Source: Terracidiphilus sp. | Lineage (GTDB): Bacteria > Acidobacteriota > Terriglobia > Terriglobales > Acidobacteriaceae | Length of the DNA: 64,000 nt | Assembly (NCBI GenBank): GCA_049517515.1 | Contig: JBEKSA010000017.1 | Span: 13,090-77,089 of the forward strand | Reading direction: 5' to 3' | Part shown: positions 9,759 through 23,987 of the stretch, in pieces | Layout: each line of letters opens with the position of its first letter | How positions within the stretch are numbered: position 1 is the stretch's first letter | The notes under the pieces: generated by a model | Told to the model about the DNA's origin: nothing | The model's database searches: none | What the model saw: the letters and a program-made list of their open reading frames with translations, nothing else | Program-made: the position numbers and the translations under genes

Positions 9759-10886
9759 TTGAGCGGCGAGCACGAAAGGGTCCTTGTCCTGAACCCCGGA
9801 ACGACGTCGACGAAGTTCGGCGTTTATACGCGCGCGGGCGAAGAGATGGCGCGCAACATTCACCACGGAGACGAGGAAATCGAGAGGTTTCGCGGGAGGC
9901 CGATGCTGGACCGGCTGGAGTACCGCGCGGGGCGGATCGAGGCGGCGCTCAAAGAGGCAGGATACGGCGAGAGCGGGAGGGGCGCGGAGCCCTGGGCTGC
10001 GGTGGCCGGCCGGGGCGGACTGCTGCCGCCGATGGAGTGCGGGACGTATCTCGTGGACGACACGATGGTGGAGGAATTGCGGCGGGCGCGACGCGGAGAA
10101 CATGCGTCGAACCTGGGCGCGGTTCTGGCGTTGCGGTTTGCAGCGGCGGCCGGCGTGGAGGCGTACATTGTGGATCCGGTGACGGCGGATGAGTGGCAGG
10201 AGTGCGCAAGGCGCTCGGGCTCGCCGCTGGTGAAGCGGTCGTTCGTGGGGCACGCGCTGAACACCAAGGCTGTGGCTCGGCGCCATGCTCGCGGGCTGGG
10301 GCGCCGCTACGAGGAGATGCGGCTGATCGTGGTGCACATGGGCAGCGGAATTACGGTGACGGCACACCGCGGCGGGCGCATGATCGACAGCAATTCCATC
10401 GAGGAGGGCCCGTTCGGCCCGGACCGCACGGGATCGCTGCCGGTGCGCGAGCTGATCAAGCTGTGCTTTAGCGGATCGATGACGGAAAAGGAGCTCGACC
10501 GGCACGTCTTCGGCGACGGTGGACTGTTCGCGTATCTCGGAACGCGCGACCTCATGGAGGTGGAGCGGAGAATCGACGCGGGCGACGCGCAGGCGGCGGC
10601 GGTCTTCGAGGCCATGGTCTACCAGATCGGCAAGGAGACGGGCGCGATGGCCGCGGTGCTCGAAGGCAAAGTGGATGCGGTGTTGGTTACCGGCGGCATG
10701 GTGCACTCAGAGCGGCTAGTGGCGCGGCTGCGCGGGTCTGTGGAATGGATCGCGCCGGTGGCTGTGTATCCCGGGGAGGACGAGCTGCGGGCGCTGGCCG
10801 AGGGCGTGTTCCGCGTGCTGGACGGAGAGGGAGAAGCCAAGCGGATGAAAAGGCAGGGAGTAAGGAGTAGGACCAGGGATCAGTGA
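9759..10886 (+). CDS. buk: Butyrate kinase
   Basis: LNPGTTSTK, GRGGLL, GEHASNLG, HALNTKAVAR, VVHMGSGIT and YPGEDEL motifs. Confidence 0.93.
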   Translation: MSGEHERVLVLNPGTTSTKFGVYTRAGEEMARNIHHGDEEIERFRGRPMLDRLEYRAGRIEAALKEAGYGESGRGAEPWAAVAGRGGLLPPMECGTYLVDDTMVEELRRARRGEHASNLGAVLALRFAAAAGVEAYIVDPVTADEWQECARRSGSPLVKRSFVGHALNTKAVARRHARGLGRRYEEMRLIVVHMGSGITVTAHRGGRMIDSNSIEEGPFGPDRTGSLPVRELIKLCFSGSMTEKELDRHVFGDGGLFAYLGTRDLMEVERRIDAGDAQAAAVFEAMVYQIGKETGAMAAVLEGKVDAVLVTGGMVHSERLVARLRGSVEWIAPVAVYPGEDELRALAEGVFRVLDGEGEAKRMKRQGVRSRTRDQ

Positions 10887-11051
10887 AGAGTGAATCGTGA
10901 AATACGGGCAGTGGAAAAGTGAAGAAGTGAGCGGCTACCGGCTACAAGCTGGAATCTAAAGCTAAAAAAGATGACACCCGACACCTGACGCCTGGCAACT
11001 GAACCCTGCATTAGAATTCGATAGAGAATCGGGAGACGGCGAGGGACAGAG

Positions 11052-11918
11052 TTGGCGGTTCTGGCGGTGCAGCAGATCCGGCGCATGCGGGGCGGAGCGC
11101 AGGGCCAGTTGATGCTGGGCGCAGACGGGCACGTCTACGTGGTGAAGTTCCAGAACAACCCGCAGCATACGCGGGTTCTGGCCAACGAGTTGATGGCCTC
11201 GCGGCTGGCGGCGGCGGCGGGGCTGACGGTGCCCGAGACTGATCTGGTGGAAGTTTCGAGCTGGCTGATTGAGAATACGCCGGAGCTGGAGATCGACATA
11301 GGGCGGACGCGGGCGCGCTGCCAGGCGGGACTGCAGTTCGGGTCGCGCTTCGCCGGAGGCATGATGCCGGGCCAGGTGGTTGACTACCTGACCGAAGAGC
11401 AACTGGCCGAGTTGAAGAACCCGGGCGAGTTCGCCGGCGTCCTGGCTCTGGATAAGTGGACCGGCAATGCCAACGGGCGGCAGGCGGTGTTCACGCGGCG
11501 GCAGCGGGAGAAGCGCTATAGGGCTGTTTTCATCGACTTCGGGTACTGCTTTCACGCCGGGGAGTGGCGCTTTGAAGATGCTCCGCTGCGCGGCGTGTAT
11601 TACCGCAACGATGTGTACCGGGAGATCACGGGATGGGAGTCGTTTGAGCCCTGGCTGACGAGACTTGAAACCATGGCGGCGGAGACGGTGTGGGAGGCGG
11701 CCAACGAGGTTCCCCCCGAATGGTATGGCGGCGATCAGAGTGAAATGGAAGCACTGGTCGAAAAGCTGCTCAAGCGGCGGAGCCGGATCCGGGAGCTGAT
11801 TGAGGCGTTTGGGAACTCGGATAGGAGGCCGTTTCCGAAATGGGGAGCGGGGGGGATGGAAAGTGAGAAGAGGTCTTGGAGAGCGGCCCGATGGGGAGAT
11901 ACGATGAGGGTGAATTGA
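11052..11918 (+). CDS. HipA-like (HipA_2/PI3-4-kinase-like fold) kinase
   Basis: RRMRGGAQ Gly loop, YVVKF, ANELMASRLA, LDKWTGNANGRQ and FIDFGYCF motifs. Confidence 0.85.
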   Translation: MAVLAVQQIRRMRGGAQGQLMLGADGHVYVVKFQNNPQHTRVLANELMASRLAAAAGLTVPETDLVEVSSWLIENTPELEIDIGRTRARCQAGLQFGSRFAGGMMPGQVVDYLTEEQLAELKNPGEFAGVLALDKWTGNANGRQAVFTRRQREKRYRAVFIDFGYCFHAGEWRFEDAPLRGVYYRNDVYREITGWESFEPWLTRLETMAAETVWEAANEVPPEWYGGDQSEMEALVEKLLKRRSRIRELIEAFGNSDRRPFPKWGAGGMESEKRSWRAARWGDTMRVN

Positions 11919-11927
11919 GGACAGAAC

Positions 11928-12112
11928 TTAGTTTTTAGCTGTTAACCTTTAGCTCTTTCCGTTCGCGCGAAGACGGCAGAGGCTTTAATGGTGGAGGACA
12001 ACGGCACGGAGTTTCGGACTGCATAGCCGGGGCTAAGAGCTAAAAGCTAAGGGCTAAGAGCCCGAGGCTGCCAGCTACGGGCTGCGGGCTATGAACTACG
12101 AACTGCGAACTT
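11928..12112. repeat. Inverted AGCT-core heptamer repeat blocks plus further heptamers
   Basis: ttagtttttagctgttaacctttagctcttt paired with gctaagagctaaaagctaagggctaagagc; then gctacgg/gctgcgg/gctatga/actacga/actgcga. Confidence 0.75.
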
Positions 12113-12121
12113 GAAGAAGCG

Positions 12122-12997
12122 ATGACGAGCCAAAGCCAGCGGCGTGGGTGCGAGTTTCAACTGCTTCGGTATGTGCCGGACGCAGTGCGGAACGAGTATG
12201 TGCACATCGGCGTGATCTTGCGCGAGTCCGCCACGGCGGACAACCCTGGAAGGGTTGAGGTGCGCTTCACGCGCGACTGGCGGCGGGTGAGGTGCCTCGA
12301 TCCCCACGCCGATACGGCGCTGCTCGAAGGGATGGAAGGCGAGCTGCGGCGGCAGCTCCAGGAGCGAACGGACCTGGAGGAAACAGACCTTGAGGCGGCG
12401 GGAGGGCGCCTGATGCGGATCCTCGAGGAATCGCTCTCGCTGAACGTGCAGATGACTGAGCCCAAGGCCTACCTGGCCGAAAGCGTTCCCGCGGGAATGG
12501 AAGAGCTGATGCGGATCTACGTCGAGCCCCCGCCGCGGGAGCGGAGCCCGAGGCTCAGCGGACGGGCGGCGATCCAGTCGCGCATGCGCTCGGAGTTCGA
12601 ACATGCCGGTGTGTGGGATCTTTTGAGAAAGAGAATCGCCGCCTCGGAGTACACGCGGCCGGGCGATCCGCTGCGGATCGACGTGGGCTACCGGCCCAAC
12701 GGGGTGGTGCGGATGTTCCAGGCGGTGAGCCTCGATCCGGGGCTGGAGACGGCCAAGGTGCTGGCCTTTTCGGCAGCCGCGCTCCGCGTCGGCGTAGAGC
12801 GAGTGGAGAAAGCCGAGCTTGAGTTGACGGCCGTGATCGAGCCAGCGGCGCGGGTGGGAGCGACCGAAGAGGAGCCGGAACGGCTGGAGCTCTACCGCTT
12901 CGGAGTGGAGACGATGGAAGAGCACCGGATTCGGGTGCTGACCACCTCCGACATGGGCCGCGTAGCCGAGACGGCGCGGCGCGAGCTGCACGTGTAA
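12122..12997 (+). CDS. DUF3037 domain protein (usual partner of HipA_2 kinases)
   Basis: CEFQLLRYVPDAVRNEYVHIGVIL N-terminal signature; C-terminal IDVGYRPNG restriction-endonuclease-like region. Confidence 0.85.
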   Translation: MTSQSQRRGCEFQLLRYVPDAVRNEYVHIGVILRESATADNPGRVEVRFTRDWRRVRCLDPHADTALLEGMEGELRRQLQERTDLEETDLEAAGGRLMRILEESLSLNVQMTEPKAYLAESVPAGMEELMRIYVEPPPRERSPRLSGRAAIQSRMRSEFEHAGVWDLLRKRIAASEYTRPGDPLRIDVGYRPNGVVRMFQAVSLDPGLETAKVLAFSAAALRVGVERVEKAELELTAVIEPAARVGATEEEPERLELYRFGVETMEEHRIRVLTTSDMGRVAETARRELHV

Positions 12998-13198
12998 AGA
13001 GCTGGAGCCCGAAAACTGGGGTGCGGCTCGCGATCCAGTCGAGACTCTAAGTCTATTTTTAAGAACGCGTAAGGGGATGGTCACTGGGCCCGAAAATATT
13101 TTTTCTGAAGTTTGCCGATAATTTCCGGGCTTCGCGGTAGGATCAATCCGGTTGATGGATTTCAGGGGTATCGCGGCCGTTGCCGGGAGCGATTGAGT

Positions 13199-13265: not shown

Positions 13266-13302
13266 AAAAAGGCATGGCCATGGGCCGTGCCTTTTTGTTT
13301 TT
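13266..13302 (+). terminator. Intrinsic terminator immediately upstream of the portal RBS
   Basis: Stem GGCATGGCC/GGCCGTGCC (one G-U pair), 3-nt loop, then TTTTTGTTTTT. Confidence 0.85.
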
Positions 13303-13310
13303 GAAGGAAG

Positions 13311-14612
13311 GTGCGCGTGAAGGTAGGCGAGCAATTACGGGAGATGTGGCGGCAGGCCCGCCGCGGCAGGCAGGCCGGGAATGGTGAGCGGTCCCGGCAG
13401 GTGGACCTCGATGCGGAGGTGGGGGCGGAGGCGGAGCGGAAGACGCTTGCGCTTCCCGCGATCCTGAGCCCGGTGCAATTTCCGGGCAAGCATCTGCCCA
13501 AGCCGACGCCGATGAACCTGCGCCGGTTTGCGGAGACACCGGTGGTGCGGCGGGCGATCAACGTGATCAAGGACCGCATCGCGGCGATGGACTGGCAGAT
13601 TCGGGTGCGACGCGGCGTGCAGCCCAACGACGTGGCGTTTGCGGCGCGCAAGCTGCGGGCGCTACGGTGCGCGCTGGAGGAGCCGAATCCGTCCGACAGC
13701 TTCCGCACCTTGGTGGAGCAGGTGATCGAAGATGCGCTGACCGGCGGCTTTGGAGCCATCGAGATGGAGCCGACGGGCGACCCGGAGCGGCCGGCGATGC
13801 TGTGGCCGGTGGATGGGGCCTCGATCCGCATCAACGCCAGGTGGGACGGCGGCGAGGATACGCCGCGCTACGCGCAGGCCATGCCGGGACAACTGGAGTC
13901 GGGCGCCGTGGAGCTGCTCGACCGGCAGTTGATGTACATCCGGATGAACCCGCGCAGCTTTACTCCCTTCGGGCTGGGGCCGCTGGAAGTGGCCTTTGAG
14001 ACGGTGAACCAGTTCCTGAGCGCGCACCGCTTTGCCGGCAAGCTGGCGGCGAACTCGGTGGCGCAGTATGCACTCTGGCTGAACGAAGCCACGCCCGCGC
14101 AGCACGACCGGCTAATCCGCTGGTGGCAGGGCGAGATCGAAGGCACGGGGCGCGTGCCGCTGATCTCGACCGAGCAGAAGCCGGAGGTGCTGCGCTTCGC
14201 GCAGGGAACGGACGCGGACCTGAGGCTGGCATGGCAGGAGTTCCTGATCCGGATGGTGGCCAACGCCTTCGGGCTGCCGCCGCTGATGCTGGGTCTGGAG
14301 GCGGACGTGAACCAGTCGACGGCCTCGGAGATGGCCGACGAGGCCTTCCGCGGCGCGATCTCGCCGCTGGCCATGCTGGTGGCCGGGCACATCACGCGCG
14401 ATCTGTTCGCCAAGTGCATCGGCTGGCGGGAGTTTGAGTTTGTCTTCAACGAGCTGAGCGCGCGGGACGAGGAGACAGAGCTGCAGGTGCAAGTGCAACT
14501 GCTGCAGGCCGGCGTGCTCACGATCGACGAGGTACGGGCGATGCGGGGACTGGCTCCGCTGGGGCAGACTCCGGAGGCGTTGCTGTCGGGCGAAGCGGAA
14601 AACAGAGACTAA
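13311..14612 (+). CDS. Phage portal protein (HK97-like); start may be GTG at 13317
   Basis: TPVVRRAINVIKDRIAAMDW, DALTGGFG, LWPVDG, FGLGPLE, IRMVANAFGLPPLML and GVLTIDEVRAMRGL motifs. Confidence 0.92.
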   Translation: MRVKVGEQLREMWRQARRGRQAGNGERSRQVDLDAEVGAEAERKTLALPAILSPVQFPGKHLPKPTPMNLRRFAETPVVRRAINVIKDRIAAMDWQIRVRRGVQPNDVAFAARKLRALRCALEEPNPSDSFRTLVEQVIEDALTGGFGAIEMEPTGDPERPAMLWPVDGASIRINARWDGGEDTPRYAQAMPGQLESGAVELLDRQLMYIRMNPRSFTPFGLGPLEVAFETVNQFLSAHRFAGKLAANSVAQYALWLNEATPAQHDRLIRWWQGEIEGTGRVPLISTEQKPEVLRFAQGTDADLRLAWQEFLIRMVANAFGLPPLMLGLEADVNQSTASEMADEAFRGAISPLAMLVAGHITRDLFAKCIGWREFEFVFNELSARDEETELQVQVQLLQAGVLTIDEVRAMRGLAPLGQTPEALLSGEAENRD

Positions 14613-14682
14613 GGGACTTAGGGACATAGGGGCTAAGAAACGCAGGGAGCGGGGACCGAGTCCCTGGCGGAGCGGAGCGAGC

Positions 14683-15183
14683 ATGCGATTGGAAGCGATG
14701 GCGGTAAAGATTCCTCATGTGGACAAGCATCCCAACCGGGTGCCATTTGAGGGCGTGTTGACGGTAGTGAACGCGGCCAGCGATCGAGCGCCGGCCGGAG
14801 CGCGCGGGCACCGCGTGATGCTGACGCGCGAGGCGGCGGAGAAGGCGCTGCCTTCGCTGCTGGGCATGGCTGTGGATTACAGACCCGGATGGGACGGCCA
14901 CGATGCGCGTCGCAAGATCGGCCTGCTGACCGAGGCCGATGTGATCGGGCCGCGGCTGGTGGTGCGAGGGTACCTCTACGCGCGCGATTTTCCCGATGTG
15001 GCGCAGGCGATCACGGCGCACGCTCTCGAAACGCTGGGCATGAGCTACGAACTGGCCGATGCGCGCGTGGAGGATATGCGGGCGGAGATCTGGAAGCTGA
15101 CGCGGGTGACCTTTACCGGAGCGGCGATTCTGCTGCGGGACAAGGCAGCTTACCGGGCGACAAGCTTCAGGATGGCGAGTTAG
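14683..15183 (+). CDS. Prohead (maturation) protease-like protein
   Basis: Position after the portal; His (WDGHD) and Ser (LGMSYE) in HK97/assemblin-type spacing; C-terminal FTGAAIL...AY. Confidence 0.65.
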   Translation: MRLEAMAVKIPHVDKHPNRVPFEGVLTVVNAASDRAPAGARGHRVMLTREAAEKALPSLLGMAVDYRPGWDGHDARRKIGLLTEADVIGPRLVVRGYLYARDFPDVAQAITAHALETLGMSYELADARVEDMRAEIWKLTRVTFTGAAILLRDKAAYRATSFRMAS

Positions 15184-15190
15184 CGAAAGA

Positions 15191-15290
15191 CAGCGGAGTT
15201 AGCGGAGCCAGCGGAGTTGGCGGAGTTAGCCAAGGGGAAAAGCCAGACGGCCAACAAGTAAGTTAGCGAGTTAGTCAATCAGTGAGTAAG
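15191..15290. repeat. 9-mer x4 (YAGCGGAGT-like) and 8-mer tandem repeats
   Basis: CAGCGGAGT TAGCGGAGC CAGCGGAGT TGGCGGAGT, then aagtaagt tagcgagt tagtcaat cagtgagt. Confidence 0.75.
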
Positions 15291-15300
15291 AGAGCGAACA

Positions 15301-15331
15301 AAGAGGCTCCGGGAACGGAGCCTTTTTGTTT
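15301..15331 (+). terminator. Intrinsic terminator between the protease and scaffold genes
   Basis: GGCTCCG/CGGAGCC stem, GGAA tetraloop, then TTTTTGTTT. Confidence 0.85.
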
Positions 15332-15381
15332 CTCAGTGAACCGCCGCAGTGAGCAATTCGCAAAAACAGGAAAGGAAAAAC

Positions 15382-15780
15382 ATGGAACAAGGAGAAGAGA
15401 ACATCGTGGAGCGGCTGGAAGCCGCAACCACCGCGCTGGAAAAGACGCTCAGTTGGCTGGAACAACGGCAGGGTGAGCTTTCCGGCGAGGTGGAGAGGAT
15501 CTCGGCGACTGTGGAACAAAGCCGCCGCGAAACCGAACTGGCGGAGAAGCTTGCCGCCGTGGAGCGCGAGTTGGCCGAGGTGAAAGCGGCGTCGACGCAG
15601 AACGCACTGAACCCGCTGCGCCGCACCATGCCCGCAGCAACGGCCGAGATGCTGGCCAAGCATGGCATCGGCGATGGGCCGGTGGATGTGCGCTCGCTGG
15701 ATGCGGCGTTGTCCGGACTGAGCCTGGAGCAGCGCATTGCAGTCAAAACGCAACTGCTGCGGGCCGGCGCAATCTCGTAA
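15382..15780 (+). CDS. Capsid scaffold-like coiled-coil protein
   Basis: GGAAAGGA RBS; Glu-rich heptad helix; position between protease and capsid. Confidence 0.6.
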   Translation: MEQGEENIVERLEAATTALEKTLSWLEQRQGELSGEVERISATVEQSRRETELAEKLAAVERELAEVKAASTQNALNPLRRTMPAATAEMLAKHGIGDGPVDVRSLDAALSGLSLEQRIAVKTQLLRAGAIS

Positions 15781-15784
15781 AGGC

Positions 15785-15965
15785 AGCTTCTAGCTTTTAG
15801 CTATTAGCTCTTAGCTACGAGCTTGTTGAGCGCACAGGGTAGCCGACAGACGAAACGCGATGGAAGTGAAAGATCGCGGACCGCGCGCCGGCGAATGATC
15901 AATCATCAACGCCAGATCAGGCACGAACAAGCTGGCAGCTAGGAGCTAGAAGCTAGCAGCTAAGC
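15785..15965. repeat. Inverted AGCTNNN heptamer blocks enclosing about 100 nt
   Basis: Six AGCT units at 15785-15827 are in register with the reverse complement of five AGCT units at 15926-15965. Confidence 0.85.
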
Positions 15966-15995
15966 ACGGCCCCATGGAGGGGGTGGAGAGAATCT

Positions 15996-16964
15996 ATGAA
16001 CGCAACCTTTGCAGATATTCATGCGGCAGCGGACTACATCGGGCCGGGCGCTATCGAAGTTCCGCTGTACCAGACGGAGATCTTCGACATTTGCCGGCGG
16101 TCAAGTTCATTTGGACAGCGCATCAGGCAGGTTCCGGCGACCGGGCATCCGTCGCGTTTCTTTGAGGAGACGGCGATTCCCAATCCGGGGACAGCGGGCT
16201 TCGTGAATCCGCGCAGCATCAATCCCACGGTGGTGAGCCCGACGCGCATTGAGCTGAGCGTGCCGCTGAAAGCGGTTGTGGCACAGATCAACTACAACCT
16301 CTTCGACATCGAGCTGGGCGACCAGCAGAAGCAGTTCGCCTATCTGCAGGCCAAGGATCTTGTGGATACGGTGAGCGGCGTGATGGTGGCGCACGACGTG
16401 GCGCTGTGGAACGGCAACGACACCAGCCTGAGCGCGCCTACGACCACGCAGTACATGGGCTGCGCGGCGCAGATCGCGGCCGGAGGCAACTCGGTGACCG
16501 TGACCACCTCGATGAAGATTGTGGACACGATCAAGACCACGGTGGCGCAGATGGTGGCCAACAACGGCTACCATGTGCGTCCCACGGCGGTCTATGCCAA
16601 CCCGGTGCTGCTGGACCTGATCGACCAGGAGATGAAATCCGAGTACAACGTGGTGCTGAACACCGACCAGATCACCGGCGGCTTCCGCGTGAAGATGCTT
16701 TCGACGCAGGCCGGCGACCTGCCGTTGATTCCGGATTGGAGCCTGAGTTACACGGGCACGCCGGGAAGCGGCAATGCCGTGCTTCCGGCCTACATCGTGA
16801 CTGAGGATCTGATCGAGTATCACTGGCTGGGCGATCCCACTCCGCGCGTCTTCCAGCTCGGCTTGCCGAACTCGCTGACCCACCAGTATGTGGCAGTCAA
16901 GTTCGGCGCTCCGGTGGTGAAGGGCGCAAACTTCGCCCACTATCAGGTGCTGGTCGACCGGTAG
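15996..16964 (+). CDS. Major capsid protein (HK97-fold-like)
   Basis: 322 aa after the scaffold; ends in a typical MCP-like pattern (V.FG..VV.G..F.H..V); followed by neck genes. Confidence 0.72.
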   Translation: MNATFADIHAAADYIGPGAIEVPLYQTEIFDICRRSSSFGQRIRQVPATGHPSRFFEETAIPNPGTAGFVNPRSINPTVVSPTRIELSVPLKAVVAQINYNLFDIELGDQQKQFAYLQAKDLVDTVSGVMVAHDVALWNGNDTSLSAPTTTQYMGCAAQIAAGGNSVTVTTSMKIVDTIKTTVAQMVANNGYHVRPTAVYANPVLLDLIDQEMKSEYNVVLNTDQITGGFRVKMLSTQAGDLPLIPDWSLSYTGTPGSGNAVLPAYIVTEDLIEYHWLGDPTPRVFQLGLPNSLTHQYVAVKFGAPVVKGANFAHYQVLVDR

Positions 16965-16967
16965 GGA

Positions 16968-17100
16968 AAACAGTTCATGGTTAGCAGTTCATGGTTTGCA
17001 GCTCACGGCCGCCGGAAAGAACACCGGCAGCCGTGAGGCGCGGGCTGAGGACTGCGAACCAGGAACTCTGACTCAAGAATTCTGAACCAGGAACTGGAAA
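16968..17100. repeat. Degenerate inverted tandem repeats (CAGTTCATGGTT / GAACCAGGAACT)
   Basis: Seen directly in the capsid-adaptor spacer. Confidence 0.6.
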
Positions 17101-17114
17101 CGGAAGGATGCGCG

Positions 17115-17738
17115 ATGGCATATCTCGAGCCAGCGGATTACACGAACTATGGATTGCCGGCCGGGACCACGGCAGACTGGATCACGGCCGCGACGGCCCT
17201 GATCAACAGTTACTGCAGGCGGCCCGATCTGAATGTGATTCAGTATACGGAGCGCCTGCGCGTAACGGCTGGGGCGCAGACGGTGCGGCTGAGCTATCTG
17301 CCGCTGGCGCCGCTGGCGCCGGCGACGACGCCGATGGTGAGCCTCGAAGGACGGTACGCGAGGCCAAGACGCGGGGAGATTCCGCAGGAGCCGCTCATCG
17401 AGATCGCATGGGCGTTTGCGTTGCCCGGGCAATGGACGTCGATCGATGCCACGCTTGTGGACTTCGATCCCAACACCGGGGAGCTGACGCTGCCGTGGAA
17501 TGTTCTGGGGCTGCCGTTCAACGAAGTGCAAGCGACTTACACGGCGGGCCTAGCGACCATCGGCGACGACGTGAAGTCAGCGTGTGCGCAGATTGTGCGC
17601 AATGCGCAGGCAACGCCAGCGCTGAACGCGAGCATGAGCAGGATCGACACGATGCAAATCAAGTATTTCTCAAGTTCGCTGATCGACGAGACGGTGCAGG
17701 CGTGGCTGAATCCGTACGTTGCGAACAGGCTGGGGTGA
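17115..17738 (+). CDS. Head-tail adaptor (gp6/gp15-like)
   Basis: AATALINSYCRR N-helix, beta insertion, then VQATYTAGLATIGDDVKSACAQIV. Confidence 0.75.
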   Translation: MAYLEPADYTNYGLPAGTTADWITAATALINSYCRRPDLNVIQYTERLRVTAGAQTVRLSYLPLAPLAPATTPMVSLEGRYARPRRGEIPQEPLIEIAWAFALPGQWTSIDATLVDFDPNTGELTLPWNVLGLPFNEVQATYTAGLATIGDDVKSACAQIVRNAQATPALNASMSRIDTMQIKYFSSSLIDETVQAWLNPYVANRLG

Positions 17739-17741
17739 GCG

Positions 17742-18176
17742 ATGAGCGATACGGCGCCGCGTAACCCGCGGGGCGCGCCGCAGATGCTGGCCGACGCGCT
17801 GCTGCGCAGCGCATCGGGTACGACGGCCCTTCTGCGCGTGACAGGCACGAATACGGATACGAGCATGTCGGAGGTCGGCCTGGTAGCGACCACCTTCGCC
17901 GATGTTCCGGTAAGCCCGGTGCTGATGCGCAAGCTGCGGCCGCAATGGCAGGAAGGTGGCGAATCGAAGTGGGAGCTGCTGGTGTCGGCCACGAGTGTGG
18001 AGCAGCAGATCAACACGCTCGATTTGCCGTCGGCACAGTCTCTGTTCGCCATGACTTTGGCGGTTACCGTGGCCGGGCAAGACTATCTGATTGAGTCGAT
18101 CGCTTCCAATGAGGCGTTTGGCCAGGTGTATCTCTACCGGCTGCTTTTGCGCGAGGCGCGGCAGCAGGCGGTGTAA
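17742..18176 (+). CDS. Head closure/stopper-like protein
   Basis: Size (144 aa), beta-rich pattern and position after the adaptor; no diagnostic motif. Confidence 0.5.
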   Translation: MSDTAPRNPRGAPQMLADALLRSASGTTALLRVTGTNTDTSMSEVGLVATTFADVPVSPVLMRKLRPQWQEGGESKWELLVSATSVEQQINTLDLPSAQSLFAMTLAVTVAGQDYLIESIASNEAFGQVYLYRLLLREARQQAV

Positions 18177-18193
18177 CCGCGCGAGGGGCATCC

Positions 18194-18679
18194 ATGCAGA
18201 ATGCGAAAGATTCTTTTTATATGGCGTTGCGCACGCGGCTTACCGAGATCAATCCGCAGCGGACGATCCTGGTGCGGGGTACCGTAAGGCCGGGAATCCT
18301 GGTGGAGGAAGCAGAGGCTCCGTTCAGCCAGTTCCCTAGCGACGTGTTTGTGTTGCGCTGGCTGGGCCTGGCTGTTGACATGGACCTGGCATCAACGATG
18401 ACAGGGGAGCAATGCGAAATCGTCTACCAGACGTGCGGCACACAGAGCTTCGGCGGGCTGGATCGCGGCCGAGCTTTGAGCACGATGGACGAGGAATTAA
18501 TGGCGATGATTCAGCCTTTCTACACACCGAAGCTGAATTACGCCGCCACGCCGCCAGCCGCCATGCTGACGCAGGTTTTCTGGGATGAGCCGGTGTTCTC
18601 GCCCATCGTTACCCAGCGCGACCGGCTGAGCCGCAGCGCGACAGTGTTGGTTTACAGCTACCAGGAGCAGGGGGAGTAA
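18194..18679 (+). CDS. Tail terminator/completion-like protein
   Basis: N-terminal helix (KDSFYMALRTRL), 161 aa, immediately before the tube gene; called on synteny. Confidence 0.5.
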   Translation: MQNAKDSFYMALRTRLTEINPQRTILVRGTVRPGILVEEAEAPFSQFPSDVFVLRWLGLAVDMDLASTMTGEQCEIVYQTCGTQSFGGLDRGRALSTMDEELMAMIQPFYTPKLNYAATPPAAMLTQVFWDEPVFSPIVTQRDRLSRSATVLVYSYQEQGE

Positions 18680-19654
18680 ATGGCCGCAACTTGGTTTTCC
18701 GCTCCGGCGCCGGTGTCGCGACGGGTGCGGGCTTTCTTTGCGCCGGTGAATCGCGCGGCGCAGACGCCCGTTCTTTTCGATCCGTCGGAACAGGGCTGGT
18801 TTAGTCTTGATGCCCCACCGGCACCGTGGATCAGCCTAGGATGGGTGCAGGATTTTGTGCGCAAGACGGCGAGTAAGTCAGCGGCGCTGATGACCGGAAT
18901 TCCCGCAGCGCCCCTCGAACAGGTGCGCGAGACCCTCGAAGCGCAAGTAAGTCTTCAATTTCTAAGTTGGACGAAGCTGACGATGGGTCTGGCTACCGGC
19001 TCGCAACATATGAACATCCTTGCGCCGGCGATTGGCGCGGCTCCTGCAGCTGATGGAGCACAAGCATCGCCCGCAGTGACACCGCAGAGCGGTTCGACGA
19101 GCACGTCGATTCTGCTGGCGCTTACGGACGCGGCCAAATTCACACCCGGCGCGATCGTCGCTGTCGACGCGGATTACAACGGGCAGACCGGCTATGTGGG
19201 CACTCCGGTAGCCGGCGCGTACGTGCGCCAGGTGCTCACGGATGTGGACTACGTGCGGCGCGTAACGTTCAATGTCGCGCTTGTATCGCAAGTGACCGCG
19301 ACCGGGCTGAATCTGGCCGAGCCGTTGCCGGGCGGCGCCCCTGCAACGGGCGCCAAGGTGCAGGCAGTGACCGGATTTGTCGATCGAGAAGGCGGAAGCT
19401 TTTACCAGGAGTGGTCAGGGCTCTTTGTGATGGAAGGCAGCCAGGGAGAGAGAATCTTTTTCCACTATCCAAGACTGCAAGCTATGACCGGAGCGGAGGA
19501 GGCTGTTTCGCCGCTCAATCAAAAGAATCAAGGTGGACATTCGCGTGTACTACTCAAGGGGCAGTTTCTGGCATTGCCGGTGATGGACCCATTGGATGGA
19601 GAACGCGTGGTATGTTACCGGAGCTTTCTACCGGCGGCCAACGCGCTGGTATAA
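18680..19654 (+). CDS. Major tail tube-like protein with inserted domain
   Basis: WISLGWV...EAQVSLQFL..LTMGLATG and RIFFHYPRL...F.ALP.DP patterns of non-contractile tube proteins; called on synteny. Confidence 0.55.
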   Translation: MAATWFSAPAPVSRRVRAFFAPVNRAAQTPVLFDPSEQGWFSLDAPPAPWISLGWVQDFVRKTASKSAALMTGIPAAPLEQVRETLEAQVSLQFLSWTKLTMGLATGSQHMNILAPAIGAAPAADGAQASPAVTPQSGSTSTSILLALTDAAKFTPGAIVAVDADYNGQTGYVGTPVAGAYVRQVLTDVDYVRRVTFNVALVSQVTATGLNLAEPLPGGAPATGAKVQAVTGFVDREGGSFYQEWSGLFVMEGSQGERIFFHYPRLQAMTGAEEAVSPLNQKNQGGHSRVLLKGQFLALPVMDPLDGERVVCYRSFLPAANALV

Positions 19655-19694
19655 CACGCACTAGAGAATCCGAGTTACCAGACAGAGAGTTGCG

Positions 19695-22011
19695 ATGAAG
19701 ATACAAATCCAGAGGCAGGATTACACGGCTGCGTTCGACTCCGGTCGTCCATTAACCATCGAGCGCAAGCTGAATGCACCGTCGGTCTGCGAGTTATGGT
19801 TGAGCCTACCGGCCAATGGCAGTCTTGCGGCGCCGGCGCGCTTTCAATCTGTTTCGGTGACCGGGGATGACGGGACAACTTACTTCACGGGCTATATCAC
19901 TGCAAGTCCCTTGCCAGAGTATGCGGGAATTGGCCTTGAAGGGCCGCGCTACCGGCTAGCAATTCAGGCTGTGAGCGATGAGATTCTGCTGGACCAGGTG
20001 CTGATGCCGCCCAGCGCCGGATTGGCCGAAGAGGATGCGGGGACGTTGCTTGCTGCCCTTGTGGCTCACACTGGATCGACATCCCTTTCGGCGCGGACGT
20101 CTTCACTGAACACTCTTGTGGGGAACTTTACTCCGGAGCCGGGAGCAAATTGGAGCAAAAGCGCCGGAGAGGCCGCTGGCATGGCCCGGGCGGCATATCG
20201 CGCACAGAGCGGCGCAATCACGCTGTCCGCGGTACAGACAACCGTTCATCCCCTGAATGAGACCGATGGGAGCCTGAACCTGGGTAACCTGGCTCTGACA
20301 GCAAGCGTTAAGCGCGCGCTGGCCAACGATGTGACCGTTTGCGGCGAGAATGAGCCGGCAGCCTATGTTACGGAGTACTTCCTCGGCGACGGAGCAACAA
20401 CGCAGTTCAATCTGGCAGCCGACCCATACTTTCCCGCGACTTCAAAATCCACAATTATCAGCGAGCTCTTTAACGAGCCACAAATCAACGAGACGGTGTG
20501 GGAATTTTCCGAGGGAACGGGCTACCTTACGATCGGCCCCGGCGGCCTGGCGATGAACGGCGGCAACGGGATCGACGGGCAGACGTTGCTGACATGGATC
20601 GATCCCATCGAAATGGGTGGAACTCTGCTGTTTGAGGCGGTGGGAGTGAAACTGTCTCCGGGCAGCACGGGCATCGTGGCGGGATTCTTTACCAGTCTGC
20701 TGACAGCGGCGAATTGCACCGCAGGTTTTCAGGCCACGGCGCAACAAGGCACCGGAGCCGTGACGCTGCAGCCAGTCGTGGAGGGCACTCCCGCGGGAAT
20801 CACGTTTGCGTTGAATCCAGCCAACCAATACACTGTCCGTGTCCGCATACACTGTCCGGAGTGTAATCGCGCGCAAGCAATGTATTATTCCTTTGGAGAT
20901 CAGGGGCTCATCGGCGCCGGCGGTGAATGGGCCATCGCTTCTGGAAAGATCCAGATGGAGATACAAGAATTTGTCAACGGCGTCGGCGCAACTCCTGTCA
21001 CACTGTATGACGCGGCTGTTGCCTATCTTCCTGGCTCCTGCCTGGTGGTGCCGGCCAGCAGCATCAATTTAATCGGAACGATTCGCGCCGTAAGCCTGAC
21101 GAACTTAGGGTCAGGTTGGGTAGTAAGTACCCCGCCGGCTGGCGGAGCGTACACGCGAAGGGTAGGCACAACCGCCGAAGCCGCGGAGTGTCATCTGGAG
21201 CGCACCGGCAAGGTCACGTTCTACACCGGATGCACGCCGGTTGCAGGTGAACAGATTGCAGTGAGTTACCGCACGGTTGGGCGGGCCGTAGGCCGCGCGG
21301 TAAACTCCACCAGCCAGCAGGCGCTGGCACAAGCCGGCTCACCGACTGTGGCCGCCTGGATCGGCTCGGTCACTCGTCCCCCCGGCACGCTGCTCCGCGG
21401 ATTGCCGCAATGCCGCGCTGGTGATGGAGCAGGCTGCAGCCAGCGTGAGCGCGCTTTGGAGTGGAACGTACAAAGGGAACCGGACGAGCTTTTCAGCGGA
21501 TGTTTGGCCAGGCGACGCGCTGCTGCTTGACGCGCCTTCGACAAATCTAAATGCGGAAGTCGTAGTGCGCACAGTTAAAGTAACTTACAGCGCCAGTTAC
21601 CCGGACTTAGTGGCTTATGAGATCGCCTTTGCCAATGACTGGGCAGATGACTTAGCCATCAAGACAAGCGCCGCGGTGCCAGCGGACACTTGGTTGCCGG
21701 CTCCCATTGCCCCTACAGTACTGGCCAATCTTGCCTGTCTCACGGTGGCCGCGATGAACGGGAGCACGGTGACGGTGAATACGGGAGTGACACCGCCAAG
21801 CGGCGGCGGGTTCGAGATTCGGTTGCGCGATTTTGCTTTCATGCCCGGCGAGGATCCGACGCTGGTGATCCGCGGCTCGCAGCCGAATCTTACGTTTTCG
21901 CGCATTTCGGCGAGCGATCGGTTCTACATTCGGATGTTCGATGGTTCGACGCCACCAAATTACTCGGAATTTTCGACGGCGCTGTTCATCAATCTGCCGT
22001 TGAGTTCTTGA
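19695..22011 (+). CDS. Tail hub/tip-like protein, split by a +1 frameshift at the C6 run 21378-21383 (about 771 aa if restored)
   Basis: Hub-like N-terminus (TIERKLNAPS, YFTGYI, RLAIQAVS); frame 19695 runs into GC-biased nonsense after VTRP, while the +1 frame continues PARCSADCRNAALVMEQ into DVWPGDALLLD. Confidence 0.65.
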
Positions 22012-22061
22012 ACGGAAGAGCGAGCAAAAATGAGGTACTCAACGGAGTCCGGTGGATGCGA

Positions 22062-22283
22062 ATGATGAATGATTTCGAGGCCCAGGTACTGAGCGATCTA
22101 AGCGTGCTGAAATCGCAGATGACCGGATTGATGGGCGACGGCAACGGCGGGCGGCTGGCGGAACTGGAGCGGCGCATGGAGCGCCACGAGCAGAACTGGC
22201 AGCGCGCCAGGGGATTTCTTGCGGCCTTGAGCGTACTGTTCGCAGTGATCGAAGTGGCTGTTGAGGCGTGGCACCGACACTAG
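22062..22283 (+). CDS. Holin/XhlA-like small membrane protein
   Basis: Coiled coil (GRLAELERRMERHE) plus one C-terminal TM helix; last gene of the cassette. Confidence 0.55.
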   Translation: MMNDFEAQVLSDLSVLKSQMTGLMGDGNGGRLAELERRMERHEQNWQRARGFLAALSVLFAVIEVAVEAWHRH

Positions 22284-22320: not shown

Positions 22321-22824
22321 ATGAGCGAACAACCGCTTGTAGGCGTTGTGATGGGCAGCAAGAGCGACTACGAAGTACTCTCGGCGGCCGTAGAAATTTT
22401 GCGCGCGCTCAAGATTCCGCATGAAGCGCGCATCGTAAGCGCGCACCGCACGCCGGACTGGCTTTTCAAGTACGCAGAAACGGCTCGCGAGCGCGGCCTG
22501 CGCGCGATCATCGCCGGGGCCGGCGGCGCGGCGCATCTGCCCGGCATGCTGGCCGCGAAAACGCTCGTCCCCGTGCTCGGGGTTCCGGTTCCCGCCACCC
22601 ACCTCAACGGCCTCGATGCGCTGCTCTCTATCGTGCAGATGCCCAAGGGTGTGCCCGTTGGAACACTGGCCATTGGCAAGGCCGGTGCGGCCAACGCTGC
22701 GCTGCTCGCCGCGGAGATTCTGGCCGCGACCGATACAGCTCTCTACGATCGCCTCGCCGCGTGGCGCGCTGCGCGCACCCAGGAAGTGCTCGACCAGAAG
22801 ATAGGCGAGGAGCAGGCCGGGTGA
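22321..22824 (+). CDS. purE: N5-CAIR mutase
   Basis: VGVVMGSKSD, SAHRTP, GAGGAAHLPGM and SIVQMPKGVPV motifs; TATAAT at 22308-22313. Confidence 0.97.
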   Translation: MSEQPLVGVVMGSKSDYEVLSAAVEILRALKIPHEARIVSAHRTPDWLFKYAETARERGLRAIIAGAGGAAHLPGMLAAKTLVPVLGVPVPATHLNGLDALLSIVQMPKGVPVGTLAIGKAGAANAALLAAEILAATDTALYDRLAAWRAARTQEVLDQKIGEEQAG

Positions 22825-23987
22825 GTTCCACCTCAGCTCCAATAAAAGAGCAGATCCTTCCCGGTAGCTTGCTGGCCGTTCTCGGCGGCGGCCAGTTGGG
22901 CCGCATGACCGCAATGGCTGCGCGCACAATGGGCTTTCGCGTGCGCGTGATGGACCCCGAGGCAAAGTGCCCTGCGAGTTTCGTGGCGGATGAGACTATC
23001 GTGGGCCGCTGGGACGACGTGGATGCGGCGCGAAGGCTGGCCGCGGGCGCGGAAGCAGTGACGCTAGAGATCGAGCAGATCGGCGTGGATGCGTTGCGCG
23101 AAGTTGCGAGCATTGCGCTGTTGCGGCCTGGCGTGGAACCGATCCGCATCATTCAAGACAAGACACTGCAAAAAACGTGGCTCGCTGAGAACGGCTTTCC
23201 CATGGGACCGTTTCGCGTCGCACGCAGCGAAGCGGAACTGCATGAGGCGGTGGCTGAACTGGGCGCGCAGGTGTTTCTGAAGACCGGCCACGGGGGCTAC
23301 GATGGCCGCGGCCAAGCGCGGATCGGATTGGATTCACCGGCGACGAGAGAGACGATTGCAGCGGCGTGGAGCGCGATTGGCGCGCGGCCCGCTGTCGCCG
23401 AAGAGGCCCTCGAGCTTGAGTGCGAGATCAGCGTGATGGCTGCGCGGAGTCCGGCGGGCGAGGTTCGCGTGTATCCCGCCGCACGCAACCACCACGAGAA
23501 TCAGATTCTGGCGTGGAGCGTTTCGCCTGCGGGTGTGCCGGCCGCGCTTGAATCGCGTGCCGAGACTCTTGCCGCGGAGCTCGTCACGAAACTTGGAATC
23601 GAGGGGCTGCTTTGCGCGGAGATCTTCGTGACGCGCGCGGGCGAGCTCTTCATCAACGAGCTTGCGCCACGGCCGCACAACAGCTATCACCAAAGCGAGC
23701 GCGGCTGCGTAACCAGCCAGTTCGAGCAGCTTGTGCGAGCGGTTTGCAATCTGCCGCTGGGATCGACGGAGCTGATCAGTCCGGCGGCGATCGTCAACTT
23801 ACTCGGCGATGTGTGGCTGAAGGGCGAGCCGAATTTGGCTGCGGCGCTCGCGGTTCCCGGCGTTCGATTGCACCTCTACGAGAAGCACACGCCGCGATCA
23901 GGGCGCAAAATGGGGCATTTGTCGGCGGTGGGAGCTACTGCGGAAGAGGCGCTGGAACGAGTGCTGGAAGCGAAGAGGAGACTCTAG
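22821..23987 (+). CDS. purK: N5-CAIR synthetase
   Basis: LGGGQLGRM, GGYDGRGQ, NELAPRPHNS and RKMGH motifs. Confidence 0.96.
   Translation: MSSTSAPIKEQILPGSLLAVLGGGQLGRMTAMAARTMGFRVRVMDPEAKCPASFVADETIVGRWDDVDAARRLAAGAEAVTLEIEQIGVDALREVASIALLRPGVEPIRIIQDKTLQKTWLAENGFPMGPFRVARSEAELHEAVAELGAQVFLKTGHGGYDGRGQARIGLDSPATRETIAAAWSAIGARPAVAEEALELECEISVMAARSPAGEVRVYPAARNHHENQILAWSVSPAGVPAALESRAETLAAELVTKLGIEGLLCAEIFVTRAGELFINELAPRPHNSYHQSERGCVTSQFEQLVRAVCNLPLGSTELISPAAIVNLLGDVWLKGEPNLAAALAVPGVRLHLYEKHTPRSGRKMGHLSAVGATAEEALERVLEAKRRL

Follow-up and report, generated by a model that had tools for sequence, protein, structure and literature searches.

To our knowledge, gene transfer agents (GTAs) have been experimentally demonstrated only in Alphaproteobacteria, Brachyspira, Desulfovibrio and one archaeon. 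Tailed-phage particles have been domesticated several times in unrelated lineages (PMC11841831). In Caulobacter crescentus, the cluster encoding the GTA of this species (CcGTA) needs the anti-termination factor GafYZ (PMC11150451), and LypABC, a system of defence type, is required for GTA release (PMC13236601). A solitary portal gene has been reported in nearly every subdivision-1 genome, even in those without a called prophage (PMC5900883), and a 'core' phage-like contig from peat moss matches an Acidobacteriaceae genome (PMC12142844). Both observations may reflect the subject of this work, a cassette of ten phage-like genes located at positions 13311-22283 of a 64,000-nt stretch of Terracidiphilus sp. 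DNA (assembly GCA_049517515.1, contig JBEKSA010000017.1, positions 13,090 to 77,089; hereafter the window). An earlier note on this DNA had proposed a domesticated cassette of GTA type and named no characterised system of this kind in the phylum; in agreement with this, a literature search found no described GTA in Acidobacteriota.

The ten genes are co-oriented on the + strand with short spacers between them, and the identities of three of their products are firm. The portal gene (13311/13317-14612, +) matches Pfam Phage_portal (4e-53) and phrog_2662 (7e-40), and its likely start is a GTG at 13317, preceded by AAGGAAGG. The major capsid protein of 322 aa (15996-16964, +) has the HK97 fold: its AlphaFold2 model (predicted local distance difference test, pLDDT, 80; predicted template modelling score, pTM, 0.77) matches many HK97-fold capsids in PDB and BFVD with a Foldseek probability of 1.0, and no Pfam or PHROG model matched the protein. 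The head-tail adaptor (17115-17738, +) matches phrog_442 (5e-14), as do four of four divergent adaptor orthologues. Taken together with the comparisons described below, the gene content argues for a host-maintained, vertically inherited, phage-derived particle system of the Terriglobales, which is probably a gene transfer agent and probably of a kind not yet described in the phylum Acidobacteriota. The residual doubt concerns mostly the role of the particle and less the functionality of the genes. The GTA reading is preferred because the phage-like structural genes occupy one chromosomal site across genera without genes for mobility, integration, excision, replication or lysogeny control, are inherited vertically under uniform purifying selection, have co-diverged with the host and have retained a terminase that is separated from them.

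The distribution of the cassette was followed by means of the capsid, for which 4535 homologues were found; the top 120 are full length and 86-93% identical. Among 1.84 billion representative proteins, 297 clusters at 50% identity match the capsid, many of them fragments. Few matching clusters and many homologues indicate that the family is narrow but densely populated, and it is encoded in at least 579 GTDB species genomes. The best 80 loci (L001-L080) from a scan of one genome per GTDB species were examined, with flanks of 10 kb inspected in the relatives. All 80 genomes are Terracidiphilus, Acidobacteriaceae or Terriglobales metagenome-assembled genomes (MAGs), many with contigs of 0.1-4.8 Mb, and in 80 of 80 the order from the portal to g10, the last gene, is collinear as far as the contigs extend; purE follows the cassette in 57 of them. 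The order is also retained in IMG/VR contigs with 67-88% capsid identity and in the cultured isolate Paracidobacterium acidisoli (contiguous locus QVQT02000004.1:338033-359001), whose capsid is 80% identical and where purE-purK follow downstream. In a lineage with about 70% capsid identity, the cassette is followed by a gene for 2-oxoacid dehydrogenase E2; as this gene adjoins the far side of purK in P. acidisoli, the neighbourhood is the same.

The cassette is under purifying selection as strong as that acting on the neighbouring housekeeping genes. The ratios of nonsynonymous to synonymous substitution rates (dN/dS; pairwise Nei-Gojobori) of all ten genes over the 80 loci are 0.07-0.15, compared with 0.10 for purE, 0.15 for purK, 0.06 for bipA and about 0.17 for buk. 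In the clade of 17 genomes around the window, which lacks the terminase at this locus, dN/dS is 0.05-0.16 at dS 0.44-1.2. Between the window and its four nearest relatives, at dS 0.14-0.62 (mostly 0.25-0.4), it does not exceed 0.16, except for g3 against L004 (0.27). For single genes, the values are 0.08 for g2, 0.06-0.085 for the capsid, which is the most conserved cassette protein, 0.07-0.10 for g6 and 0.10 for g7. The least conserved proteins are those of g3, g8 and g9, and dN/dS of g3 is nevertheless 0.15. The frequency of truncated-looking genes in the cassette does not exceed that in bipA or purK, and such genes cluster in MAG assemblies with the MFD label.

The cassette has also diverged together with its host. 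Against the nearest relatives its dS (0.25-0.4) is about equal to that of the flanks (0.27-0.53); the protein distances of cassette and bipA are correlated (Mantel r=0.61, p=0.0005), as are those of head and tail genes (r=0.89). The earlier view of a vertically inherited, domesticated element is thus borne out by the fixed site, which the 80 species genomes, more distant lineages and the cultured isolate have in common, by dN/dS of 0.05-0.16 per gene, similar to the flanks, and by co-divergence. Patchiness, variable insertion sites, many pseudogenes and neutral dN/dS, which had been named as signs of a decaying prophage, were not seen. Congruence with the host is upheld by the dS comparison and by the correlation with bipA, and is qualified by the choice of markers, as explained below.

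A large terminase was not found in the cassette, nor among 30 large open reading frames (ORFs) scanned across the rest of the window, and the terminase of relatives used as tblastn query gave no match in the window. It was first met beside the kinase pair described below in a rearranged IMG/VR lineage, where it matches phrog_2 (1e-23) and is 31% identical to the terminase of phage CRP-7. Three configurations of the region upstream of the portal were then distinguished. In the first, terminase, HipA_2 kinase, DUF3037 gene and portal follow each other (about 30 of the 80 species loci and most of the divergent and IMG/VR contigs); in the second, that of the window and its closest relatives, the kinase pair is kept and the terminase has gone from the locus; in the third, nine loci have neither, and host genes (tmk/recJ, or S9 peptidase/ribH) reach the portal. 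A tree built from concatenated head and neck proteins puts the form with the terminase at the base and the two others in derived positions. In the ancestral order, the large terminase and a giant mosaic fibre gene lie 5' of the kinase pair and portal; this module was relocated in the window clade.

The module persists elsewhere in the chromosome. In a genome of the window clade (L012), the terminase lies on the cassette's own contig of 977,299 nt, about 590 kb away, preceded by genes for a 157-aa basic protein and a 2506-aa protein and followed by imuA-imuB-dnaE2, rpmE and dus; a second split genome carries the same module beside rpmE-dus. Comparison of the two displaced terminases gave a dN/dS of 0.14, so that they are still constrained. 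Relatives have an intact, constrained terminase, either adjacent to the cassette or at a second locus. The giant protein has 2159-2506 aa in four complete Terracidiphilus-type examples and 1030-1760 aa in the rearranged lineage; about 200 N-terminal residues are conserved, followed by mosaic segments rich in Gly/Ala/Thr/Ser, and some genomes add a pectate-lyase/tailspike domain. This make-up is usual for tail fibres or spikes, as which the protein may be regarded. These results change the limits drawn by the earlier note, which had drawn the cassette at 13311-22283 with the kinase and DUF3037 genes to its left: the terminase, the giant fibre gene and the kinase pair also belong to the conserved unit, which occupies two loci in this clade. 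Its account of a ten-gene siphovirus set holds for the co-oriented genes and for portal, capsid and adaptor, but the module is incomplete, as it contains neither terminase nor tape measure. At one locus (L041, 1980-3104), a DDE transposase of an insertion sequence (IS) lies directly 5' of the terminase, where the fibre gene normally sits.

Several points weigh against a GTA. Particle, packaged DNA and transfer are predicted here from the genes, and no expression or proteomic report on these genes was found in the literature search. In the window, g9 is frameshifted and split into 19695-21530 and 21421-22011; the break is caused by one extra C in a run of six (21378-21383), and its deletion restores a frame of 771 aa. 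Tape measure, tail chaperone and endolysin were not recognised anywhere in the conserved gene set; nor was a small terminase, for which a basic ORF of 113-157 aa 5' of the fibre gene is a candidate. The terminase of the window's own genome is presumed from a related genome. The contiguous form of the system, of about 21 kb, could fit a T=7 head and might therefore package itself. Besides, bipA, the host marker, is itself in physical linkage with the cassette; purE, a poor host marker because two divergent forms of it exist, gave no Mantel signal. Finally, dS over the 80 loci is near 1, close to saturation across the full set, which is not the case for the comparisons among close relatives. In the window clade, the split of the loci would make self-transfer as one unit impossible.

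Directly 5' of the cassette, a HipA-like Ser/Thr kinase (11052..11918, +; Pfam HipA_2 1e-11, PADLOC PDC-M66A 1e-9) is followed by a DUF3037 protein, its partner (12122..12997, +; Pfam DUF3037 4e-18, PADLOC PDC-M66B 1e-9). The two adjacent genes (11052-12997) have the composition by which HipAD / PDC-M66 systems are recognised, and a defence activity is predicted for them. The kinase lies directly 5' of DUF3037 and portal in most relatives, down to 53% portal identity, and the pair sits between terminase and portal in most lineages examined, including P. acidisoli, with DUF3037 identity down to 30-45%. This linkage persists at deep divergence and is therefore not a chance neighbourhood. Both genes are constrained, with dN/dS of 0.14-0.16 for the kinase and 0.12 for DUF3037. 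In one relative (L117, 5118-5300), a small ORF of the 23S_rRNA_IVP family is inserted between them.

The pair gives rise to the best-surviving alternative, which is that the host keeps the particle or capsid system for phage defence or competition, acting by assembly interference, as a decoy or by killing of neighbours, with the kinase pair as an abortive-infection arm. A related system of HipA-family kinase and DUF3037 (DS-6/HipAD) protects experimentally against phage (PMC13092281), and the match of the pair to PDC-M66A/B, together with its lasting position between terminase and portal, speaks for this explanation. Nevertheless, several clades have lost the pair, and there all ten structural genes remain under unchanged purifying selection (dN/dS 0.06-0.11), so that the pair is dispensable for the retention of the structural genes. 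Furthermore, the set of genes under selection, with head, neck, tail-tip, fibre and terminase genes, is larger than interference would need, and the head genes are the most conserved, unlike in a tailocin. A defensive role is thus considered unlikely. With regard to other particles of this kind, a tailocin, being a tail without capsid, portal or terminase, was rejected because the system has all three and its best-conserved protein is the capsid, and an encapsulin was rejected in view of portal and terminase.

A slightly less probable explanation is that a domesticated machine packages DNA from a set place on the chromosome, as in lateral transduction, so that particular neighbouring genes and not random DNA are moved. 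The presence of the cassette beside the same host genes across genera would fit this, as would the terminase kept at a second fixed site by imuA-imuB-dnaE2/rpmE-dus in the two split genomes. Against it, neither a pac site nor a small terminase could be identified, the genes upstream differ between clades and the sequence bears no sign of directionality.

The idea of a functionless, decaying cryptic prophage, widespread only through age or hitch-hiking beside purE, can draw on the loss of terminase and kinase pair from the locus in some clades, the varying upstream border, the IS beside the L041 terminase, the frameshifted g9 of the window and the absent tape measure and lysin; it is already contradicted by the selection data, with dN/dS between 0.05 and 0.16 for each gene of each tested clade at dS 0.25-1.7, constant gene lengths, breaks no commoner than in the housekeeping neighbours and a displaced terminase that is constrained, and is regarded as very improbable. 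Equally improbable is a mobile element, namely a temperate phage or a capsid-forming satellite similar to the capsid-forming phage-inducible chromosomal islands (cf-PICIs), with its other genes outside the region examined: contigs with the capsid are classed as viral, a related capsid occurs in an unrelated phage-like string and a rearranged lineage has HTH_26 and sigma-like genes upstream, but across the 80 species genomes, and in the isolate of a second genus, the cassette keeps one chromosomal position, cassette and flanks have equal dS, a distance of about 590 kb separates the parts in the window clade and integrase, replication gene, tRNA and att repeat are missing. A cf-PICI proper was rejected, as the system has no integrase or replication genes, has one fixed site and brings its own tail-tip and fibre genes.

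The catalogue of viral contigs deserves separate mention. IMG/VR lists 26 contigs with the capsid (L081-L106) as viral, most of which carry the cassette that is found on multi-Mb chromosomal contigs. Two of them (L104 and L105, of 74 and 214 kb) encode at 10001-10969 a capsid that is 66% identical within an unrelated string of phage-like + strand ORFs, from which it follows that the capsid family occurs in other (pro)phages too. The rearranged lineage (L087, L090, L095 with L107, and L116) has the order g2 to g8, giant fibre, terminase, kinase, DUF3037, portal and g9, and an HTH_26 gene on the opposite strand and a gene similar to sigma-70 region 4 precede g2. A circular contig or tandem duplication was considered for L095 and rejected, as the join to L107 has no terminal repeat and two further contigs have the same order; the lineage is genuinely rearranged.

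The remaining genes of the cassette are identified by weaker evidence, which applies to protease, scaffold, tube and tip. Profile annotation with Pfam, PHROGs (including 41 divergent orthologues singly) and PDB profiles assigned none of g2, g6, g7, g8, g9, the small basic ORF and the giant ORF. The product of g2 (14683-15183, +), lying between portal and scaffold, is a candidate prohead protease in view of this position, of the invariant residues His73 and Asp74 and of the GMS121YEL motif with invariant S121. The next gene, g3 (15349-15780, +), occupies the scaffold position and has weak matches of coiled-coil type, and from both features a scaffold is inferred. For g6 (17742-18176, +), a neck protein, and g7 (18194-18679, +), a neck or tail protein, nothing was matched in Pfam, PHROGs or PDB profiles, so the labels 'stopper' and 'terminator' given to them are positional.

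Regarding the tail, g8 (18680-19654, +) encodes a possible tail-tube or distal-tail protein. Its AlphaFold2 model is poor (pLDDT 48), because the alignment rows formed two tight clusters, and its match to the tail tube of phage Mystique (top Foldseek match, E=5.8e-4), with the YSD1 major tail protein and a tail-tip chain of phage Chi next in rank, is therefore weak; no sequence profile matched g8, and neither capsid nor g8 has a tblastn match among 50,697 phage records. The product of g9 (19695-22011, +; 771 aa in relatives) has a single tblastn relative among the same records, gp15 of Tunturiibacter phage Tunturi_4 (3e-12), a large virion protein encoded 3' of the tape measure, and this distant homology fits a tail tip or hub. 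The intact frame of 771 aa is present in 62 of 66 relatives, with lengths of 769-773 aa in 19 of 20 relatives sampled, and both halves of the broken gene are constrained in the window (dN/dS 0.08-0.16 against the nearest relatives). The last gene, g10 (22056-22283, +), encodes 75 aa with a single C-terminal transmembrane segment by hydropathy, is present in 63 relatives and has the lowest dN/dS of the cassette (0.05-0.07); 'holin-like' is a putative label. Third-position GC is 0.74-0.88 in head and neck genes versus about 0.64 in the tail genes g8 and g9. The synonymous divergence of g8 and g9 in the window clade is about twice that of the head genes (about 1.1 versus 0.44-0.68), and protein-level constraint is equal.

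The region ahead of the portal contains elements that may govern the expression of the cassette. A promoter-like or operator block (13092..13158, +) carries the motif TTGC(C/A)GATAATT-N-GCGGTAGGAT about 120 nt 5' of a terminator hairpin. The motif is found in 34 of 43 leaders, with 52 matches in the 3.9 Mb searched and at most one per locus, and the block is conserved 5' of the portal wherever loci were inspected; it may be the promoter. A scan with the sigma-70 consensus found no promoter in the cassette, the leader matches no known RNA family in Rfam, and the motif is absent from the terminase/fibre locus, which gives no evidence for a shared promoter. The hairpin is an intrinsic terminator with a 14-bp stem and a U-tract (13266..13305, +), ending 10 nt before the portal Shine-Dalgarno sequence. 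A hairpin with T-run is present in 43 of 48 leaders, covering all three upstream configurations and also P. acidisoli. In the alignment of 42 of them (one doubtful leader dropped), 93% of cells are paired and 7 of 14 pairs are compensatory; 0 of 500 shuffles reach the observed value, and slid controls are 35-55% paired. A second terminator-like hairpin with T-run (15297..15334, +) lies between g2 and g3, with comparable ones in 32 of 64 relatives. A promoter-like block, leader and terminator in succession before a late operon point to anti-termination as the probable means of control; no gene for an antiterminator was recognised. In five relatives (L004, L005, L007, L023, L033) terminator and portal Shine-Dalgarno sequence are separated by about 100 inserted nucleotides, which form a hairpin of their own (GCGGCTTTTTCTTGA.GAAAAAGCCGC) and resemble a small mobile palindromic element.

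The surroundings of the cassette agree with the earlier description of its edges. To the left lie a buk-like gene, the HipA_2 kinase and the DUF3037 gene, and to the right purE, 37 nt past the g10 stop, purK, a GNAT gene and bipA. The flanking ORFs include no integrase, repressor or replication gene, the 64-kb window contains no tRNA, and the cassette is not bracketed by an att-like direct repeat. In the region 22321-23987 of the window and its equivalents in L001-L080, two forms of the purE gene beside the cassette can be told apart: the first shares about 85-95% identity with that of the window and is followed by purK, whereas the second is about 73-79% identical and usually has bipA/oprB after it in place of purK. 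It seems that purE(/purK) has been replaced while the locus stayed fixed. Short-repeat runs of AGCTA/TAGCT type, pairing into long palindromes, occupy the spacers 15781-15995 and 12030-12050 and the leaders of L036, L066 and others.

If the particle is a gene transfer agent, the following mechanism may be proposed. The terminator upstream of the portal would hold expression off until an antitermination or activation signal releases it. Procapsids would form at the portal on a scaffold of g3 and be matured by the protease g2, and the unlinked terminase would fill the heads by a headful mechanism. Since the element does not replicate and its genes are split, the packaged DNA would be mostly host DNA. 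Adaptor, g6, g7, g8 and g9 would then close the head and build a short tail; the tail might be very short, or genes elsewhere might supply the tape measure, the lysin and the small terminase. The giant fibre would bind surface polysaccharide of the recipient. The kinase/DUF3037 pair could link particle production with growth arrest or death of the cell, or could be no more than a resident defence module. A bolder version, in which all Terriglobales run an independently evolved GTA, so far unrecognised, with loci split between purE (structural) and the terminase-fibre module, a late operon gated by a terminator and a co-opted toxin-type kinase/DUF3037 immune pair that chooses the cells for production and release, is offered tentatively and is rather doubtful as a whole.

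The Terriglobales are a dominant order of soil and peat and are among the most abundant soil bacteria. The cassette is a candidate GTA of independent origin whose capsid family lies outside Pfam and PHROGs, present in several hundred species-level genomes and with proteins as conserved as a translation GTPase. If the bolder version is true, much of the gene flow in acidic soils and peat would pass through exchange mediated by this agent. The cassette would also help to explain the recurrent 'viral' Acidobacteria contigs in soil and peat viromes. Related to this, counts of viruses and prophages in these environments may be inflated by a host element, as the IMG/VR contigs filed as viruses suggest. 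The intact cassette of the cultured P. acidisoli makes direct testing feasible. The system also offers a second, independent case for two ideas raised by Caulobacter, namely the control of GTAs by anti-termination and the co-option of immune systems by GTAs.

Among phages, the nearest sequenced relative is very distant: Tunturi_4 (PP885687.1) is a siphovirus from an acidobacterial host, and no other GenBank phage matches g9 in tblastn. It shares the late-gene order of terminase, portal, scaffold, capsid, adaptor, neck and tail, but differs as a replicating phage of 88 kb with tape measure, endolysin and DNA metabolism genes, and its capsid and tail-tube proteins have no detectable similarity to those of the cassette. 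With regard to the kinase pair, HipAD / DS-6 (PDC-M66) has the same two-gene architecture and domains, whereas the pair described here is a fixed resident of a particle cluster, in the interval between terminase and portal and not in a defence island, and its partner has DUF3037 but no DUF1829 match. The agents of Bartonella (BaGTA), Brachyspira (VSH-1), Desulfovibrio (Dd1) and Methanococcus voltae (VTA) are defined by DNA-transfer experiments, in contrast to the comparative genomics used here, and the families in common are limited to the universal portal, HK97-fold capsid and terminase folds.

The closest parallel is with CcGTA and the agent of Rhodobacter capsulatus (RcGTA). Function has been demonstrated for RcGTA, whereas the Terriglobales system is known from its genes. 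Judged from Pfam and PHROG matches, there is no detectable sequence relationship to RcGTA and the cassette lies outside the RcGTA-like family by homology, as only the generic Phage_portal and phrog_442 match. The terminase is nearest to those of phages such as CRP-7 and Stx2 phages, and the host phylum differs. Moreover, no tape measure, recognisable small terminase, GafA/GafYZ or CtrA-type regulator was seen, a kinase/DUF3037 pair is embedded between terminase and portal, and the fibre gene encodes 2159-2506 aa in the four complete Terracidiphilus-type examples. On the other hand, RcGTA, CcGTA and the present system share a chromosomal, vertically inherited head-tail cluster that is under purifying selection and has no integration or replication genes, further parts encoded away from it, an HK97-fold capsid, portal, adaptor and large terminase, and terminators inside or ahead of the cluster. 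A defence-type system associated with the particle is a further common trait, represented in Caulobacter by LypABC. The Terriglobales system would thus be an independent domestication, similar to RcGTA and CcGTA in its working but outside that family by homology.

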